Origin: an uncultured Verrucomicrobiae bacterium
GTDB taxonomy: Bacteria; Verrucomicrobiota; Verrucomicrobiia; Chthoniobacterales; Chthoniobacteraceae
Assembly: GCA_963769025.1 (NCBI GenBank)
Contig: CAVYKI010000008.1
Span: 1-42,582 of the forward strand
Direction: 5' to 3'
DNA length: 42,582 nucleotides
Shown here one piece after another: positions 1 to 14,321 of the stretch. The notes under the pieces are model-generated. The model was not told the origin of the DNA and ran no database searches. It saw only the letters and a list, made by a program, of their open reading frames with translations. The translations under genes were made by a program, and so were the position numbers. Numbering within the stretch: the first letter of the stretch is position 1; the number at the start of each line of letters is the position of its first letter.

Positions 1-59
1 AGGGACAAAAGGGTTCCACCTTTTGCAAAGTGACGGCGGGTCATGCGAGGGATGTTCAT
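1..59 (-). CDS. 5' end of a probable Tat-exported protein (runs off the window edge)
   Basis: The minus strand from ATG at 59 reads MNIPRMTRRHFAKGGTLLS with a twin-arginine motif (TRRHF). It is divergent from purH and not in the ORF track because it is truncated. Confidence 0.5.
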   Translation of the reverse strand, partial: MNIPRMTRRHFAKGGTLLS

Positions 60-206
60 CGGGCGGGAAGGTTCCTGCCGAGGGTATCCGCACCAGTCGC
101 GCAGCTTAGGACGCGTGACGCAACGCGAGTGCGCGCAAAGGCCGGCATCCATTTCCAGCGCGCCACTTGACCCACCCGCCGTCGCTGATAGCCTCCGCGC
201 CCTTCG

Positions 207-1733
207 ATGAAAATCACCCGCGCGCTCATCTCCGTTTCGGACAAGACCGGCCTAGTCGCCTTTGCACAGGAACTCTCCGCGATGGGAGTCGAAATCATCT
301 CCACCGGAGGCACGGCAAAGCTTCTGCAGGCGGAGAAAATCCCGGTGATCGAAATTTCACAATACACGGGCTTTCCCGAGATGATGGACGGACGCGTGAA
401 GACGCTGCACCCGAAGGTCCACGGCGGACTGCTGCATCTCCGCGACAATGCAGAACACGTGGCGCAGGCCAAGGAGCACGGCATCGAGCCAATCGATCTC
501 GTGGTCGTGAACCTGTATCCGTTTGAAGCCACGGTCGCGAAGGAAGGGGTGACGCTGGAGGAGGCCATCGAGCAGATCGACATCGGCGGCCCGTCGATGC
601 TCCGCAGCGCGGCGAAGAACTACCGGAGCGTGACGGTGGTCGTGGACCCGGCGGACTACACGGACGTGATCGATGCGATGAAGGCGAACGACGGCGAGAC
701 GACGCTGCAACTCCGCGAGCGGCTCGGCATCAAGGTCTTTGTCACCACTTCGAAGTACGACGGGGCGATCGCAAATTTCCTGAACGATGAGAAAGAGTGC
801 CCCTCGTCGTTCAGCATCAGCGAGCCGCTCGTTTCGCAACTCCGGCACGGCGAAAACCCGCACCAGACCGCCGCGCTCTACGGGCGCTGGAACGAACATT
901 TCGAGAAGCTCCACGGCAAGGATCTCTCGTATAACAACATCCTGGACATCACTGCCGCCGCCGAGCTCATCGAGGAATTCAGCGAGCCGACGGTCGCCAT
1001 TTTGAAGCACACCAACTCGTGCGGCGTGGGAAGCGACGCGGATTTGCGCGAGGCGTGGGACAAGGCGTTCGCGACGGACAAACAGGCGCCCTTCGGCGGC
1101 ATCATCATCTGCAACCGCCCGCTCACCGAGCCGCTCGCCCGCGCGATCAGCGAGATTTTCAGCGAGGTGATCATCGCCCCGGAATTCGAGCCCGATGCGC
1201 GCGCGCTGCTGCAGAAGAAGAAGAACCTGCGGCTGATGCGAATGCTCAGCCCGGTGCAGACGAAGGACGACCTCCTCATCCGCAGCGTGGTCGGCGGCGT
1301 GCTGGTGCAGGGCCGCGATATGTCGCCCGAGACGGACATCGAATCGAAGGTGGTGACCGCCCGCAAACCGACCGCTGACGAACTGGCAGCGATGCTCTTT
1401 GCGTGGAAAGTCGTGAAGCACGTGAAGAGCAACGCGATCGTGTACGCCGCGAAGGATCGCACGCTCGGAATCGGCGCCGGCCAGATGTCGCGCGTGGATT
1501 CGAGCCGCATCGCGATCTGGAAGGCGAAGGACGCGGGCCTCAGCCTCGCTGGCAGCGCTGTGGGCAGCGATGCATTCTTCCCATTTCCCGATGGCCTCAT
1601 CGCCGCGGCGGAGGCCGGCGCGACCTGTGCGATCCAGCCCGGCGGCTCCGTGAAGGATCCCGAGGTGATCGCCGCCGCGAACGAACGCCAGATGGCGATG
1701 ATTTGCACGGGAGTGCGGCATTTCAGGCACTGA
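207..1733 (+). CDS. purH: Bifunctional AICAR formyltransferase/IMP cyclohydrolase
   Basis: 508 aa with [62 protein letters not shown] and C-terminal GVRHFRH. Confidence 0.98.
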
Positions 1734-1748
1734 GCGACCGCGCCGCGA

Positions 1749-2480
1749 ATGAAACTCGGCGTCAACATTGACCACGTCGCCACGCTGCGCCAGGCGCGCT
1801 ACGCCGGCGGCATCGATGCACATAATGCGGAGCCGGACGTGCTCGCCGCAGCAGCGGTCTGCGAAAAGGCGGGCGCCCACGGCATCACCATCCACCTGCG
1901 CGCCGACCGTCGGCACATCCAGGACGCGGATGTTTTTCGCCTGCGCGATCAGCTCACGACGAAGATGAATCTCGAGATGGGCAACACGCCGGAGATTCTC
2001 GAAATTGCGTTGCGCGTGAAGCCCGCCGAAGTCTGCCTGGTGCCGGAGAACCGCCGCGAGGTGACCACCGAGGGAGGGCTGGATGTCGCCGGGCAATTCG
2101 ACGCCCTTCGCCCCACGGTCGATCGGCTGCGGGCCGCGGGCATCCGCGTGAGCATGTTCATCGAGCCGTCGCGCGAACAGATCGAGGTATCGCACAAGCT
2201 CGGCGCGGAGATCGTGGAGCTTCACACCGGTGCATTTGCGAACGCGACCAGCAACGCCCAGCGCGAGGAACTCGCGCGAATTCACGAGGCGTCGGTCTTT
2301 GCCCGCGGCCTCGGGTTGCAGGTGAATGCCGGGCACGGAATCAATTACACCAACATCGCGCTCATTCGTACGGTGCCGCATCTGGTCGAGCTGAACATCG
2401 GCCACAGCATCGTGTCGCGCGCCATTTTCTCCGGGCTCGACGCAGCCGTGCGCGAGATGCTCGCCTCGATGAATGCCTGA
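1749..2480 (+). CDS. pdxJ: Pyridoxine 5'-phosphate synthase
   Basis: LGVNIDHVATLRQAR, ITIHLRADRRHIQ, TTEGGLD, ELHTG, VNAGHG, ELNIGHSIVSRA. Confidence 0.98.
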   Translation: MKLGVNIDHVATLRQARYAGGIDAHNAEPDVLAAAAVCEKAGAHGITIHLRADRRHIQDADVFRLRDQLTTKMNLEMGNTPEILEIALRVKPAEVCLVPENRREVTTEGGLDVAGQFDALRPTVDRLRAAGIRVSMFIEPSREQIEVSHKLGAEIVELHTGAFANATSNAQREELARIHEASVFARGLGLQVNAGHGINYTNIALIRTVPHLVELNIGHSIVSRAIFSGLDAAVREMLASMNA

Positions 2481-2484
2481 CGCC

Positions 2485-2868
2485 ATGAGCGTGCTCGGCA
2501 TCGGCGTGGACATCGTGGAAATCGCGCGGTTCGCATCCGCGATGGAACGGAGTGGGCAGTCGCTCCTCGACCGCCTCTTTCTCCCTGCGGAGCAGGCCTA
2601 CTGCTCGCCCCAGCGTGAACCGGCCCGGTGCTACGCCGCGCGGTTCGCAGCAAAAGAGGCCGTGTCCAAGGCGCTCGGCACCGGCATCGGCGCGCAGCTT
2701 CACTGGCACGACATCGAGATTTGCCGCAAGGAAAGCGGCGCCCCGCACGTTGTCCTCAGCGGAATCGGTGCGGACACCGCCCGCGGGCTCGGCGTGGCCC
2801 AGGTGCTGCTGAGCCTCAGCCACAGCGAACACTACGCAGTGGCAAACGCGGTCGCGGTCGGCGGCTAG
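2485..2868 (+). CDS. acpS: Holo-[acyl-carrier-protein] synthase
   Basis: GIGVDIVEIARF, AARFAAKEAVSKALGTG, LSLSHSEHYAVA; follows pdxJ as is usual. Alternative start at 2473. Confidence 0.96.
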   Translation: MSVLGIGVDIVEIARFASAMERSGQSLLDRLFLPAEQAYCSPQREPARCYAARFAAKEAVSKALGTGIGAQLHWHDIEICRKESGAPHVVLSGIGADTARGLGVAQVLLSLSHSEHYAVANAVAVGG

Positions 2869-2881
2869 GCCGGCGCGTTCG

Positions 2882-5800
2882 CTATGCCGGCGTGTAATTC
2901 AGCCACGGACCGAGCCAGCGCTCCGCCTCGGCGAGGGACATTCCTTTGCGCTTCGCGTAGTCGGCGAGTTGGTCCTTGCCGAGTTTTCCGACGGCGAAGT
3001 AACGGGACTCCGGGTGCGCGAAGTAGAAGCCGCTCACGCTGCTGCCGGGCCACATCGCGCAGCTTTCGGTGAGCTTGATGCCGGTCTTCGCTTCCACGTC
3101 GAGGAGCTTCCAGAGCGTCTGCTTTTCCGTGTGATCCGGGCACGCCGGATAGCCAGGCGCGGGGCGGATGCCGCGGTATTTTTCCTCGATGAGATCGGCG
3201 GTGGTGAGCGATTCGGTCTTGCCGTAGCCCCACTCGTTGCGGACTCGCTTGTGCAGGCATTCGGCGAAGGCTTCTGCGAGACGATCTGCGACAGCTTCGG
3301 CCATGATGGCGTTGTAGTCGTCATGATCGGCTTTGAATTTCTTCACGAGTTCGTCGAGCCCGAAGCCGGTCGTGACGGCGAAGGCCGCGACGTGATCGCT
3401 GCCCTTGTCTGCGACGAAGTCGGCGAGGCATCGGTATGGGTTATCGTTGTCCTTCGCGACCTGTTGGCGGAGGTGGTGCAGGCGAGTGCGCTCGCTCGCG
3501 CGGGTCTCGTCGGTCCAGACGATGAGGTCGTCGCCGGTGCGGTTTGCCGGGAAGAAGCCATACACGGCGCGCGCGGTGAGCGAGCCATCGGCGATGAATC
3601 GGTCGAGCATCGCATTGGCATCGGCGAAAATCTTGCGCGCCTGCTCGCCGTATTTTTCGTGGTCGAGGATCTTCGGATAAACGCCGCGTAGTTCCCACGT
3701 GTGGAAAAATGGCGTCCAGTCAATGAACGGGCGCAGCTCGGCGAGCGGGAAATTTTCCAGCACGCGCACGCCGCTGAATTCCGGCTGCGGCAGGTCGCTG
3801 AACTCAAGCTTCGGTGCCTTCAGGCGTGCTTCTTCGATGGTGACGAGATTCGCAGCGCTGCCCGCGTGCTGCTGGCGGAGCGCTTCCTGATCAGTCGCAT
3901 TTTTTGCAACGAAATCCGCGCGGCCATCGGTGCTCAGCAGCGAGCTGACGACCGGCACGGCGCGGCTGGCGTCGAGGACGTGGACCACGGTGCCGTCGTA
4001 GTGCGGCGCGATTTTCACCGCCGTGTGCGCGCGCGATGTCGTCGCGCCGCCGATGAGCAGCGGGTGCTTCATGCCGAGGCGCTTCATCTCGCGGGCGACG
4101 TGCGTCATCTCGTCGAGCGAAGGCGTGATAAGGCCGCTGAGACCGATGATGTCCGCGCCGATCTCCACGGCTTTCGCCAGGATCTTGTCGCACGCGACCA
4201 TCACGCCCATGTCGGTGACCTCATAGTTGTTACACGCGAGCACGACGCCTACGATGTTCTTGCCGATGTCATGCACGTCGCCCTTCACGGTCGCGAGGAG
4301 CACCTTGCCCTGCGCCTTCACGGCTTCGCCGCGCGCGGCCATCGCGGCCTTCTCGGCCTCCATGAACGGCGTGAGGTACGCGACGGATTTCTTCATCACG
4401 CGCGCGGACTTCACGACCTGCGGCAGGAACATTTTCCCTGCGCCGAACAGATCGCCGACGACGCTCATGCCGTCCATGAGCGGGCCTTCGATGACGGTGA
4501 GCGGCTTGCCGTACTTCGCGAGCGCCTCGGCGGTGTCGGCATCAATGTGGAGATCGATCCCGCGCACGAGCGCGTGCGAGAGGCGTTCCTCGACGGTGCC
4601 CTTGCGCCATTCCTCCTCGACCTTCTTGTCGGCTGCGGTCGTGCCGGCGCTGGCGGCTTTCAATTTCTCGCCATGCTCCACGAGCCGTTCGGTCGCATCC
4701 GGGCGGCGGTTCAGCAGCACGTCCTCGACGAGTTCCTTCAGCTCCGGCTCGATCTCTTCGTACACTTCGAGCATCCCGGCATTCACGATGCCCATGTCCA
4801 TGCCCGCCTGGATCGCGTGGAAAAGGAACGCGCTGTGCATGGCCTCGCGCACGGGATTGTTGCCTCGGAAGCCGAACGAAACATTCGACACGCCGCCGCT
4901 CACCTTCGCGTGAGGGAGGTTCGCTTTGATCCACCGCGTGGCCTCGATGAAATCCACCGCATAGTTGTTGTGCTCTTCTATCCCGGTGCCGACGGTGAGG
5001 ATGTTCGGATCGAAAATGATGTCCTCGGGCGGGAAGCCGATCTCGTCCACCAGCATGCGGTAAGCGCGCTCGCAGATGCGGATTTTCTCCGCGTAAGTCG
5101 CCGCCTGTCCCTGCTCGTCGAACGCCATCACCACGACCGCTGCGCCGTATTTCAAAATGTGCCGCGCCTGCTGCCTGAACGCCTCCTCGCCGCCCTTGAG
5201 CGAGATCGAGTTCACGATGCCTTTTCCTTGCAGGCATTTCAGGCCGGCCTCGATCACTTCCCACTTCGAGGAATCCACCATGAAGGGCACTTTCGCCACG
5301 TCCGGCTCGCTGCCGAGGAGTTGCAGGAATCGCGACATCGCCGCGACGCCGTCAATCATCCCCTCGTCCATGCAGATGTCTATGATGTTGGCGCCGTTCT
5401 CAACCTGCTGCCGCGCGACCGCGACGGCCTCCTCGTAGTTTCCCGCCTTGATCAGCTTCGCGAATTTCGGCGACCCGGCGACGTTTGTGCGTTCGCCGAT
5501 CATCATGAACTGCCCGATCTGCTGCGTGAACGGCTGCGAGCCGGAAAGCCGCAGCGGCTTCGTCTCGACGGGCGACGAAATGCCACCGAGCCGCTCCGTG
5601 CCCGGCTCGCGCGGTGCGAGTTCGCGCGGGTGGCGGCTTTCGAGAGCCTTCGCGATTGCCGCGATGTGCTCGGGCGTGTTGCCGCAGCAGCCGCCCGCGA
5701 TATTCACGAGCCCGCTCTCGGCGAATTCGCCGAGGTAGCGCCCCATGTCCTCGGGGTTCAGATCAAAGCCCGTCGGCGAAAGCGGATTCGGCAGACCGGC

Positions 5801-6679
5801 ATTCGGGTAGCACGAAATCGCAGCGCCCGCCTTTTGCGACAGCTCTTCGAGAAATGGCCGCATGAGGTCCGGCCCGAGCGAGCAGTTCAGCCCGATGGAG
5901 AGCGGCTTCACGTGCGCGACCGCATTCCAAAACGCCTCGACCGTCTGCGCCGAAATCATCGTCTCGCCACCACGCCCGACCGCCGCGGAAAACGACACCG
6001 GCAGGATCATCTTGTCCTCCTCGAAGACCTCCTGGATCGCGACCGTCGCCGCCTTCGCGTTCAGCGAATCGAAGATCGTCTCCACGAGCAGAAAGTCCGA
6101 GCCGCCCGCGATCAGCGCGCGGATCTGCACTTTGTAGGCCGCCTTCACCTGATCAAATGTGCAGACGCGGAAGCCCGCATCGTCCGCATCCGGCGAGTTG
6201 GAAAGCGACACCGTGAGCGGTCCGATCGCGCCCGCAACGAAGCGCTGCTTACCGTCCTTGCTCCCGACGCGGTCCGCCCATTCGCGGCACTGCCTCGCGG
6301 AGGTCTCATTGATCTCCCACGCGAGGTCGTTGAGGAATTTGTCCTCGATGATCTTCTGGTAAAAGTCCGGGTCCTTCCGCCCTCCGAATTCGCGCGGGTC
6401 GTCCACGAAAAACTCGCTCTGCCCGATGCTCGTCGCCGAGAAAGTATTCGTCTCGATGATGTCCGCGCCCGCTTCGAGGAAGCGCCGGTGGATATCGCCA
6501 ATCATCGCCCCCTGCGTGATCGAAAAAAGGTCGCCGTTGTTCAGCAGATCCTTCTTCGAATCGCGAAACCGCTCCCCGCGAATGTCCGCCTCCGTCATTC
6601 CATAAGTGCGGATCGTGGTGCCCATCGCGCCGTCAATAATGGCGATTCGTCGGCGGAGGAGAGCTTCTAAGGGATGCAT
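2882..6679 (-). CDS. metH: Cobalamin-dependent methionine synthase
   Basis: DGAMGT, GGCCG Zn ligands, [10 protein letters not shown] pterin domain, [14 protein letters not shown] cap, [11 protein letters not shown]12-binding motif, [14 protein letters not shown] activation domain. Start taken at ATG 6679 (MHPLEALL). Confidence 0.98.
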
Positions 6680-6802
6680 GACGGAGACAATAAGAGCATG
6701 GTTTGCAGGCGCTTCAAGATTCAAAGTGACGCATCATGATTTGGTGATGGGTCGTGCTTTGAGGCTCAATCTGGCCCATCTCGGTCGAAAACCCGGCCTT
6801 CG

Positions 6803-12549: not shown

Positions 12550-12785
12550 AACGATAACCACCGGTGCGAAGGAATTCCGTGAGATTCGGAAGCAGTTGCG
12601 CTGCTGTAACTGGATACGACTTCCCATTGCCAGTCCCTGCGAAAGCGGGATGAAGGCGGGAAGAAGGATGGCCGAGCCGAAAGGCGGAGCCGCAAGCCAG
12701 GAGCCAGAACATTTCCCCGGTCGTTCTCATTCGTGACCCCGCGTGTGCGGGTGCTCTCGGAAAAACTTCTTCGCAAAAAGAAGCA
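12550..12785 (+). promoter_or_regulatory. Cobalamin riboswitch (class I-like, sequence variant)
   Basis: Closing helix ACCGG 12560-64/CCGGT 12717-21; AGGAA then P4 TTCCG-TGAGATT-CGGAA; P5 AGC-AGTTGC-GCT then GCTGTAA; CTTCCC/GGGAAG and GCCAGT..TGAAGGC with a GAAA-capped stem; B12-box-like GAGCCAGAACATTTCC; downstream hairpin CTTCTT-CGCAAA-AAGAAG whose loop is complementary to L5. Confidence 0.85.
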
Positions 12786-12866
12786 ATGAGGGATCAGCCG
12801 TCCCGCCGCGGCGCGCTCTGCGCCGTGTCATGCGCTGGTCTCTTTTCACCAGACAGGAGACCAACC

Positions 12867-13550
12867 ATGAAAAAGAAAATCAGCACACTGGCAGTGGCAT
12901 TGTTCGCCGCAGCCGCCGGCCTTCGCGCCGACACATCGTATCTGCTCATCCAGGGCCCATTCGGGCCGCTGGACGCCGAACTCACGTTCAAATGGCAGGT
13001 GAACTATCCAGCCGGAGCGCTTGTGTACGGGCAGGATCTGATGAACGCCGTCTTCGGCGCGCCAACACAGAATGGCGTGTATATGGACGCTTTCGCCAAC
13101 ACGTACGACTACTACGAGGCAGGGACCGGCATGCAGAAAGCCGGGTACATCGATTTCGGAACCATGCCAGGCACACTCACATCGCCTTTTTTGGTCTCGC
13201 TCACGCTGGGTTTGACCACGGTCACCCAGGAACCCGACTACAATCCGGGCTTCACCTACTACGTCGCGGGCGGCGGCGGCGCGCAGGCGTATCCGAATGG
13301 CGGCACCTGGTCGTCGTCGTTGGACGGCGCGGCAACGCGAACACTCGCCAACGGCAGCTATGACGCGTTCGTTTTTGGGCCCACGGATTATCAAATGGAG
13401 GCCCAGATCAGCGGAACGACGAACACGCCCACGGCGACAAACTTCATCGCGGCGACGCCGATCAATGCAGTACCTGAGCCCGCCAGTGCGTTGCTGTTCC
13501 TGATCGGCGCGGGCGGATTGCTTGCGCTCTCGAAGAGGCGGCGTGCGTAA
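12867..13550 (+). CDS. PEP-CTERM sorting-domain surface protein, putative cobalamin-binding (DUF4430/transcobalamin-like)
   Basis: RBS AGGAGA upstream; signal peptide MKKKISTLAVALFAAAAGLRA; C-terminal VPEPASALLFLIGAGGLLALSKRRRA (PEP, TM, basic tail); lies directly under the riboswitch. The B12-binding call is inferred. Confidence 0.85.
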   Translation: MKKKISTLAVALFAAAAGLRADTSYLLIQGPFGPLDAELTFKWQVNYPAGALVYGQDLMNAVFGAPTQNGVYMDAFANTYDYYEAGTGMQKAGYIDFGTMPGTLTSPFLVSLTLGLTTVTQEPDYNPGFTYYVAGGGGAQAYPNGGTWSSSLDGAATRTLANGSYDAFVFGPTDYQMEAQISGTTNTPTATNFIAATPINAVPEPASALLFLIGAGGLLALSKRRRA

Positions 13551-13568
13551 CGGCGCGATTCCGCATTC

Positions 13569-14321
13569 GTGAAAAAAGCTTTCACACTCATCGAGCTGTT
13601 GGTGGTGATCGCGATCATCACCGTGCTCAGCGCACTGTCGGTGGCGGTGATGTCGCGGGCCAAGGTAGCCAGCGCGCGGGTCATCAGCACCCATTCCCTC
13701 AGCCAGTTAATCACGGCCGGGCGCGTTTATCTGGGCGATAACAACAATCTCTTCTGGCCCTACCGCCAGGCTGCGACCGGAGGGACGCTGTGGTGGTTCG
13801 GTTTTGAATCATCCACGTCTGCGCGCATGCCCGAGGGCAAGCGAACGTGCGATTATTCCAAGGGGCCGCTGGGCCCGTATGTCATGACCTCGGGCGGGAT
13901 CAAAACGGATCCCGCATTTCTCGACTGCAAGCCGCGGCTCAAACCGAAGTACCAGAACGGAAACTACGGCTACGGCTACAACACGGTGCTCGCTGCGGAT
14001 GCCGCCGGCACCCCGCGCAATGCCATGCAGGTGGATGAGCCTGCGCAGATGATCGTGTTCGCGACCTGCGCCCAGGTGAACACCTTCCAGGCTCCAGCGT
14101 CGGGAAAAAATCCGATGGTCGAGGAATTCTACATGATCAGCGACACGCAGCGGACAGCCCATTTCCGGCATGGCAGGGATGCGCTGGCGGCGTTCCTCGA
14201 CGGCAGCGTCCGCCCGCTGAGCATGGATACGGACATGCAGCCGGGCAGCCAGGACACCCGCATCCGATCCGCGAACATCGGGATGTTTAACACGGGCTAC
14301 GTGAAGCAGGCAGGTTGGTGA
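13569..14321 (+). CDS. Prepilin-type N-terminal cleavage/methylation protein with C-terminal H-X9-DG motif (DUF1559-like)
   Basis: KKAFTLIELLVVIAII N-methylation motif; YGYN; H-GRDALAAFL-DG; GTG start 18 nt after the PEP-CTERM gene. Confidence 0.92.
   Translation: MKKAFTLIELLVVIAIITVLSALSVAVMSRAKVASARVISTHSLSQLITAGRVYLGDNNNLFWPYRQAATGGTLWWFGFESSTSARMPEGKRTCDYSKGPLGPYVMTSGGIKTDPAFLDCKPRLKPKYQNGNYGYGYNTVLAADAAGTPRNAMQVDEPAQMIVFATCAQVNTFQAPASGKNPMVEEFYMISDTQRTAHFRHGRDALAAFLDGSVRPLSMDTDMQPGSQDTRIRSANIGMFNTGYVKQAGW

Follow-up and report, generated by a model that had tools for sequence, protein, structure and literature searches.

The window analysed here, a 42,582-nt contig (CAVYKI010000008.1) from the assembly (GCA_963769025.1) of an uncultured bacterium of the Chthoniobacteraceae (Verrucomicrobiota), carries a cobalamin riboswitch followed by two closely spaced genes, of which the first encodes a secreted protein with a PEP-CTERM sorting signal (gene 1) and the second a prepilin-type protein (gene 2). 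Riboswitch, gene 1 and gene 2 probably constitute a B12-repressed corrinoid-acquisition module of this bacterium. We favor this function because the pair is the sole riboswitch regulon, because the predicted fold of gene 1 resembles that of B12 carriers and B12-binding DUF4465 proteins can take its place, and because riboswitches of two classes serve the same cassette, in which a TonB-dependent receptor can substitute for the pilin. Within such an acquisition module, gene 2 may act as the transport element that stands in for the TonB-dependent BtuB, a role that we consider possible but doubtful. The association of the riboswitch with PEP-CTERM protein(s) and a pilin is found repeatedly, both in the order and in the phylum.

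The riboswitch-led gene pair

The locus is an operon-like pair of genes headed by a genuine cobalamin riboswitch (Table 1). The aptamer covers positions 1–189 of the 189 positions of the RF00174 model and is the sole Rfam match that cmscan returned for the whole window; the 5.34-Mb assembly holds two RF00174 matches, the second of which lies in a near-duplicate copy of the locus. In the leader that separates aptamer and gene 1, the last hairpin pairs the Shine–Dalgarno sequence GGAG just 5′ of the gene 1 ATG, and RNA folding of positions 12700–12885 gave a minimum free energy of –65.6 kcal/mol (z –2.49) with the Shine–Dalgarno sequence within a stem. Simple scans between riboswitch and gene 1 revealed no intrinsic terminator pattern, no convincing terminator and no promoter-like site. 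From the predicted fold, we infer that the leader may control the pair at the level of translation. Alignment of five related loci, some with a different first gene, showed that the leader is conserved to the start codon, which suggests that the regulatory region stays fixed while first genes are swapped behind it as cassettes.

The stop codon of gene 1 (13550) and the start codon of gene 2 (13569) are separated by a gap of 18 nt. A full-length metH with all five of its Pfam domains is encoded at 2885–6724 (–), 5.8 kb upstream of the riboswitch. Among the 27 larger open reading frames of the window that were scanned, no TonB-receptor, BtuF, BtuC or energy-coupling factor (ECF) domain was found, and the remaining larger frames are housekeeping genes. 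The initial annotation, made from the letters and their translated reading frames, had described a cobalamin riboswitch ahead of two genes 18 nt apart, the first with a signal-like N-terminus and a PEP-CTERM tail, a metH in the vicinity and the absence of the usual import components from the window, and each of these observations is borne out by the model searches.

Table 1. Features of the riboswitch-led locus, numbered by position in the window
Feature	Position	Strand	Basis
Cobalamin riboswitch aptamer, RF00174	12545..12735	+	cmscan, 42.7 bits vs gathering score 31.5, E 1.4e-7
Leader / expression platform, 131 nt, three small hairpins	12736..12866	+	RNA folding
Gene 1, PEP-CTERM protein, 227 aa	12867..13550	+	Open reading frame
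Gene 1, signal peptide, residues 1–21, ending LRA	12867..12929	+	Sequence reading; cleavage site inferred
Gene 1, predicted beta-grasp domain, residues about 20–175, with insertion	12924..13391	+	Structural alignment to B12-carrier beta domains
Gene 1, PEP-CTERM sorting signal, residues 201–226: P203-E204-P205, hydrophobic stretch, RRR	13467..13544	+	PF07589, TIGR02595
Gene 2, prepilin-type protein, 250 aa, GTG start	13569..14321	+	Open reading frame
Gene 2, prepilin N-terminal motif KKA/FTLIELLVV, Glu at mature position 5, Ala at –1	13572..13637	+	PF07963 (residues 2–23), TIGR02532
Gene 2, H-x9-DG motif, H201...D211-G212, in conserved block HFRHG	14169..14204	+	Sequence

Public sequencing runs were compared with the window. 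None of these runs contains more than 0.13 of the sampled window words; four RNA-library runs were compared at 80% likeness, and the contigs obtained come from relatives. Contigs from these four soil or aquifer RNA libraries (four studies), 90–96% alike, span the riboswitch and leader (about 12570–12867), and within the coding part they cover the generic pilin N-terminus only (about 13571–13640). The contigs over the leader are consistent with abundant leader RNA of close relatives, with DNA carry-over as a possible source, and contigs of this kind cannot reveal transcript ends or co-transcription, nor can they speak to the parts that they leave uncovered.

Predicted fold of gene 1

Gene 1 is a secreted PEP-CTERM protein. 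The putative mature N-terminus, DTSYLLIQG, follows the LRA at the end of the signal peptide, for which the structural model places a helix at residues 2–17; residues A21 to G30 are invariant or nearly so among 28 aligned homologues, and TSYLLIQG is present in 28/28. At the opposite end, the tail scores above the cut-offs of both PF07589 (24.0 vs 20.7 bits) and TIGR02595 (23.9 vs 16 bits), P203, E204 and P205 are invariant among the aligned homologues, and 27 of the 28 homologues match a PEP-CTERM model. The family comprises 71 homologues, and those bearing names all belong to the Chthoniobacteraceae. Apart from the PEP-CTERM tail, no Pfam or NCBIfam model matches gene 1, and the same holds for the bodies of 27 relatives.

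The AlphaFold2 model of gene 1 (pLDDT 88.2, pTM 0.81) was the basis for a structural comparison by VIA-align with 48,161 representative chains. The five best matches are the beta domains of intrinsic factor (2pmv, Z 10.4), haptocorrin (4kkj, Z 10.3) and transcobalamin (2bb6, Z 10.1), a DUF4430 protein (3u7z, Z 9.9) and the isolated transcobalamin beta domain (5no0, Z 9.6). These chains align 96–111 residues of gene 1 (model ranges 19..175) over whole target domains, with a root-mean-square deviation of 2.2–3.1 Å for four of them and 6.3 Å for 2bb6, and at 5–14% identity; the matches that follow drop to Z 5.5 and are generic beta-grasp proteins. Foldseek independently ranked transcobalamin first, albeit weakly (E 0.031, probability 0.96), and a DUF4430 cluster at rank 7 in the ESM Atlas (score 0.76) is a lead, not evidence. 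An isolated beta domain with bound cyanocobalamin is described by the title of PDB entry 5np4. On this modeling, the predicted fold of gene 1 is that of a cobalamin-carrier beta domain (DUF4430 fold) plus an insertion, and we propose that gene 1 may serve as a surface corrinoid binder.

Recurrence of the cassette and exchange of the first gene

The initial annotation had staked its proposal beforehand on whether the synteny of riboswitch and gene pair recurs in relatives, and it recurs widely: the same arrangement is found in dozens of related loci, which is more than chance. A gene-1-anchored scan of species-representative genomes yielded 18 loci, 11 of which match most of the protein; the others (L013–L019) match only 28–83 residues near the C-terminus and were dropped as non-relatives. 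RF00174 lies upstream in 7/11 of the retained loci, one more being cut off inside gene 1 and three being without it, and a pilin gene follows directly downstream in 10/11. When the pilin served as the anchor, 13 of the 29 best loci other than the window itself had RF00174 upstream in the same orientation, at no more than 1.5 kb in eight of them and at no more than 5 kb, behind two PEP-CTERM genes, in five more; one further locus of the 29 has a sub-threshold AdoCbl-II match (33.9 vs 36.5 bits). A second sample of 20 pilin loci from other families includes 13 with a cobalamin-class riboswitch upstream on the same strand (seven RF00174 and six AdoCbl-II, RF01689), and the combined count for either class is 26/49. 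Two riboswitch classes thus serve the same cassette. The samples overlap in part, as the gene-1-anchored loci L007 and L010 appear to be the same places as the pilin-anchored loci L029 and L030.

Within the genus of the window, RF00174 is present in 21/21 sampled genomes, with exactly one match in 17. The order riboswitch, one or two PEP-CTERM proteins, pilin was found in 16 of the 20 other genomes, mostly behind the sole RF00174 match. Frameshifts or contig ends leave three of the 20 unclear, one of which shows, where a contig ends, a DUF4465 PEP-CTERM gene behind a riboswitch. In the last (G703), the sole riboswitch heads a different set of genes. This cluster (L153, G703:C141:2514-7400) encodes an unknown 525-aa protein, a Diphthami_syn_2 protein, a DUF6580 protein (207 bits) and a BtuF-like Peripla_BP_2 protein, and the riboswitch-controlled DUF6580 is possibly a membrane component. 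Extra riboswitches in three genomes (G699, G700 and G701) share a common gene order, and the case that was scanned (L152, in G699) precedes NrdB and NrdA, the classic B12-independent isozyme target of cobalamin riboswitches.

Several loci depart from the simple arrangement. A second architecture within the genus (L154, L157–L159, L163, L165–L167 and L169–L171) runs from the riboswitch through a 312–352-aa and a 266–281-aa PEP-CTERM protein to a divergent pilin, which matches the family profile at E 1e-28 to 1e-35; at L159 the cassette is followed by a PSCyt1/PSD3/PSD4/PSD5 'planctomycete cytochrome' protein. In a Chthoniobacter metagenome-assembled genome (L006, JBBCHV010000050.1, 2044-5453), one more PEP-CTERM gene stands after the riboswitch, and gene 1 is doubled in tandem ahead of the pilin, with a frameshift in its first copy. 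At L054 (G103:C125), a match to the Acido-Lenti-1 small RNA (9-55; 51.3 bits vs gathering score 37) lies ~120 nt upstream of the riboswitch of the cassette. On a contig of a metagenome-assembled genome labelled uncultured Bifidobacteriaceae (L004, CAZHIM010000090.1), the riboswitch is accompanied by a gene 1 of 54% identity, after which comes a tRNA, and the pilin is missing; the label is probably a binning error. The 209-aa gene 3′ of the pilin is conserved only within the genus and was not counted as part of the module.

The gene preceding the pilin always encodes a secreted protein, which carries a PEP-CTERM signal in most loci, and it comes in several kinds: proteins like gene 1, a 'type C' family, a PEP-CTERM type of ~310 aa found in the closest relatives, and DUF4465 proteins. 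The gene 1 and type C families are homologous (hhalign probability 99.5%, E 2.8e-22, 168 columns), type C having the consensus F-x-D-I-Q-Y-W-V-G-T-G. DUF4465 (PF14717) fills the partner position at L047 (E 3.7e-50) and L149 (E 5.7e-53). DUF4465 is reported as a widespread B12-binding family with an augmented beta-jellyroll fold, whose members neighbour TonB-receptor and ABC-transporter genes (PMC13398666); the words pilin, DUF1559 and PEP-CTERM are absent from that text. The resemblance to B12 binders that the initial annotation had ascribed to the PEP-CTERM protein is upheld by the predicted fold, not by sequence, and by the interchange with DUF4465 in the same slot.

At the level of the phylum, the type C domain occurs in 27/401 sampled genomes. 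RF00174 lies just upstream in 17 of the 20 type C loci scanned, and the genes downstream are of the N_methyl/DUF1559 prepilin type, scoring above the PF07596 cut-off of 23.3 bits at L106 (28.9 bits) and L100 (25.7 bits). In another family of the same class, L116 (G619:C1:27153-30731; 1187-3579) has the order RF00174, a 194-aa PEP-CTERM protein of the gene 1 superfamily and a TonB-dependent receptor (Plug 86 bits, barrel 64 bits), with no pilin.

The range of partners bears on a rival explanation, according to which the two genes would form a B12-responsive surface or adhesion pair, for attachment to B12-producing neighbours or for flocculation, with neither protein binding corrinoids. Links are known between PEP-CTERM proteins and the formation of exopolysaccharide and flocs, and between pilins and adhesion, and the NCBIfam PepA model is listed weakly; in addition, no proven B12 binder was matched by the sequence of gene 1, and one partner type is lectin-like by language-model features, which is a lead only. 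However, adhesion would leave unexplained the specific structural match of gene 1 to cobalamin-carrier beta domains with its clear gap to other folds, the replacement of the partner by DUF4465 B12 binders, and the occurrence of a TonB-dependent receptor next to a member of the same binder family. We consider a pure surface or adhesion role very improbable, and return to corrinoid acquisition below.

Gene 2, possible routes of import and known systems

Gene 2, the constant partner in the cassette, belongs to a conserved family of prepilin-type proteins that is usually present in single copy. It exceeds the cut-offs of N_methyl PF07963 (26.8 vs 21.2 bits) and TIGR02532 (28 vs 16.3 bits), and F5, T6, L7 and E9 are invariant among 34 family sequences. 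The canonical residue at position –1 of the prepilin peptidase site is Gly; gene 2 has Ala, as do 23 of the 34 members, eight having Gly and three being unscored. Near the C-terminus, the family shows no variation at H198, F199, R200 and G212, conservation is 90% or more at H201 and D211, and 27/34 members carry the complete H-x9-DG motif. The label of H-X9-DG/DUF1559 pilin given by the initial annotation accordingly stands as far as the prepilin models and the H201-x9-D211-G212 motif are concerned, but gene 2 itself matches neither TIGR04294 nor DUF1559 PF07596 at E≤1; TIGR04294 is matched by 11 of the 34 members at that threshold (best E 1.3e-6), and pilins of related cassettes in other classes match PF07596. 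A PF07596 search of the host genome gave no match, but its controls gave none either.

Scoring of 8000 candidates gave 681 homologues of gene 2 at E≤0.001, many of exactly 250 aa and at least 70% identical. Matches at E≤1e-20, nearly always one per genome, occur in 128/301 genomes of the order, a tally that includes one genome flagged as unpublished (G158), and in the host genome the head domain is found only in the window copy and its near-duplicate on contig C6. The AlphaFold2 model (pLDDT 88.6) comprises a long N-terminal helix and an alpha/beta head. Its best structural matches, PilA4 (Z 5.9), ComP (5hz7, Z 5.4) and PilV (Z 5.2), are weak, all being below 6, and Foldseek returned nothing at E≤0.001. 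Polar and His residues are conserved in the head (HFRH, E80, E89, R92 and D95).

The host assembly (5.34 Mb, 13 contigs) is 83% complete, such that absences from it are not proof; with this proviso, neither CbiC nor CobS was found, nor was BtuC, the sole FecCD match being ZnuB beside ZnuA. MetH is present. The genome encodes three exosortases (PF09721, 146–160 bits), one prepilin peptidase and secretins. It also encodes three TonB-dependent receptors, none of which is riboswitch-led or beside B12 genes, and their similarity to the BtuB model is at plug level at most (78.7 bits vs a cut-off of 599.7).

The whole window (contig C8, 1-42582) has a counterpart in a 48-kb stretch of the same assembly (G000:C6:87417-135126), to which it is about 80–97% identical in DNA sequence, with nearly identical ends. 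On C6, several frameshifts disrupt most of the genes (metH, the kinase, AcrB and the pilin among them), and a different PEP-CTERM protein, of the ~310-aa type, lies between riboswitch and pilin. The redundant stretch has the appearance of an alternative haplotig, or of a strain variant left poorly polished in a long-read bin, and not of a true duplication. The riboswitch at C6:121770-121961 was considered as an independent paralogue and rejected, as it lies in this ~87%-identical, frameshifted copy of the whole window.

On the observed anatomy and recurrence of the locus, we infer a course of events in which regulation, localisation, binding and the role of the pilin are each conditional. When cobalamin is scarce, the leader would free the ribosome-binding site and both proteins would be translated. 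Gene 1 would then be exported by Sec, sorted by exosortase to the cell surface and capture free corrinoid, and gene 2 would take over from there, receiving the corrinoid from the binder and moving it towards the outer membrane and periplasm or across them. It may do so as a short pseudopilus, built by type II or type IV machinery, that brings the ligand through a secretin, or it may be an inner-membrane-anchored periplasmic receiver. The strongest form of the first option, in which an H-x9-DG/DUF1559-type pilin is a ligand-specific (pseudo)pilus subunit that moves cobalamin from a swappable exosortase-anchored binder through a secretin into the periplasm, is in our judgment unlikely.

The constancy of the pilin next to a variable exported partner is also what would be expected if gene 2 served any cargo, namely as a pseudopilin dedicated to secretion, the piston or tip of a machine of the type II kind by which the PEP-CTERM binder is driven through the outer membrane, with B12 entering by a TonB receptor encoded elsewhere. 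Pseudopilins are established parts of secretion machines, the host has secretins, a prepilin peptidase and three TonB-dependent receptors, and the head of gene 2 matches no B12 binder. Against such a secretion helper, PEP-CTERM proteins are thought to be sorted by exosortases, three of which are present in the host, so that a pseudopilin would be unneeded; at L116, moreover, it is an importer, the TonB-dependent receptor, that fills the position of the pilin after the same binder family, and a generic secretion part would not be expected as the only B12-riboswitch-regulated partner in 16/20 genomes of the genus. We regard a secretion helper as rather unlikely.

The second option for gene 2 can likewise be stated as a rival, in which an unassembled, inner-membrane-anchored and corrinoid-binding gene 2 would be a BtuF analogue that hands B12 to an inner-membrane transporter, with a TonB receptor at the outer membrane. 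The Ala at –1 in 23/34 members, which may hinder prepilin processing, would fit this role, as would the failure to find BtuF or BtuC in the host, where ZnuB is the only FecCD match, the conserved polar and His residues of the head, and the one genus member without a riboswitch-led cassette, whose sole riboswitch controls a BtuF-like Peripla_BP_2 protein. Yet the head has no fold similarity to periplasmic binding proteins, the locus offers no partner permease, and the invariant F-T-L-x-E motif with its Glu5 is what filament-forming pilins keep. A periplasmic receiver is, in our assessment, quite unlikely.

Several observations weigh against the acquisition module itself, or against a role of the pilin in it. 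For gene 1 and 27 relatives, PF14478 (DUF4430) gave no match at E≤10, and the family profile found no B12 carrier among PDB sequences, with two chance-level rows at E 0.17 and 0.25. The predicted fold of gene 1 is a beta-grasp variant, and sharing a fold does not establish function; moreover, the beta domain of B12 carrier proteins forms just one half of the site that holds the ligand. Riboswitches are missing from about half of the loci in the two pilin samples: none was found upstream at 15/29 loci of the first sample and at 7/20 of the second, nor was one found at loci L008, L009 and L020. Thirteen of the 15 riboswitch-less loci come from one genus with small genomes, which has retained the pair without riboswitch. 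In the host, a MetE-like Meth_synt_2 gene (C2:78406-79452, 116 bits) implies that methionine synthesis may not strictly need B12, no inner-membrane B12 transporter was identified in the 83%-complete genome, and any of the three TonB receptors could be BtuB. As for the pilin, the Ala at –1 renders processing and filament assembly uncertain, no pilus or type II secretion assembly gene is present among the window frames scanned, and no known B12 binder appears among the fold-search matches of the head, for which other folds stay possible.

The initial annotation's proposal that a pseudopilin delivers B12 through a machine like a type II secretion system or type IV pilus is left without support, given the lack of assembly genes in the window, a head that matches no known B12 binder and the Ala at –1. 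Overall, what that annotation observed is confirmed, and its interpretation is partly supported.

Were the pilin an import element, the cassette would provide a TonB-independent route for a vitamin across the outer membrane, and the expansions of H-x9-DG/DUF1559 pilin-like proteins in Planctomycetota and Verrucomicrobiota would represent a repertoire of substrate-specific uptake pili. These prepilin-like proteins are among the largest uncharacterised families of the Planctomycetes–Verrucomicrobia–Chlamydiae (PVC) bacteria, and the papers found to mention DUF1559 do not connect it with B12. Here, one conserved, single-copy pilin branch is tied to one ligand by two riboswitch classes, B12-binder partners and TonB-receptor substitution, and the function of the pilin family thereby becomes directly testable. 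In gene 1, a bacterial protein anchored by exosortase would put the transcobalamin-beta fold to use as a candidate corrinoid binder. Ecologically, the module may indicate how abundant soil Verrucomicrobia, apparently non-producers of B12, compete for the vitamin.

Among known proteins, the predicted fold of gene 1 is like the beta domain of transcobalamin, intrinsic factor and haptocorrin and like DUF4430, but gene 1 differs from the B12 carriers in an insertion of ~50 residues, an added PEP-CTERM tail and the lack of an alpha domain. DUF4465 proteins of the BtuJ type take the same slot between riboswitch and pilin at L047 and L149, although their fold differs from that predicted for gene 1, which has no match to PF14717. 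Gene 2 shares the prepilin motif and C-terminal H-x9-DG with the H-X9-DG/DUF1559 proteins (TIGR04294, PF07596), whereas its family is single-copy here and not massively expanded. With type II secretion pseudopilins and type IV minor pilins such as ComP it shares the N-terminal class III signal motif and, in the predicted model, an alpha/beta head carried on a long helix; the head is about twice the size of PilA4, ComP and PilV, Ala occupies position –1, and no assembly genes lie nearby. The working analogy for gene 2 is the pilus-mediated uptake of a bound ligand through a secretin, as by DNA-uptake pilins, and to our knowledge a small-molecule cargo for such pilins would be unprecedented.

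The closest functional counterparts are the Btu loci of Bacteroides thetaiotaomicron, in which a riboswitch-controlled BtuB is reported to be encoded with the surface B12-binding lipoproteins BtuG, BtuH and BtuJ (PMC10404256, PMC8941943, PMC13616437, bioRxiv 10.1101/2025.07.01.662609). Common to these loci and the proposed module would be the cobalamin-riboswitch-controlled capture of corrinoids at the surface of a B12-dependent non-producer, predicted in the case of the module, and both use interchangeable accessory proteins of several folds, including DUF4465, as established or candidate binders. In contrast to the Btu lipoproteins, gene 1 has no Cys after its signal peptide and is anchored, presumably, by its PEP-CTERM/exosortase signal, and its predicted fold is transcobalamin-beta-like and not a beta-propeller. 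The conserved partner is a prepilin-type protein and not the TonB-dependent BtuB, although one related genome (L116) has the TonB-receptor arrangement, and neither a Plug/TonB_dep_Rec domain nor btuFCD occurs among the window frames scanned. Literature searches returned no description of a riboswitch-controlled cassette of PEP-CTERM protein and pilin. The cassette represents a variant of the published riboswitch-controlled surface capture of B12, and would be new in kind were import shown to depend on the pilin as its transport element.

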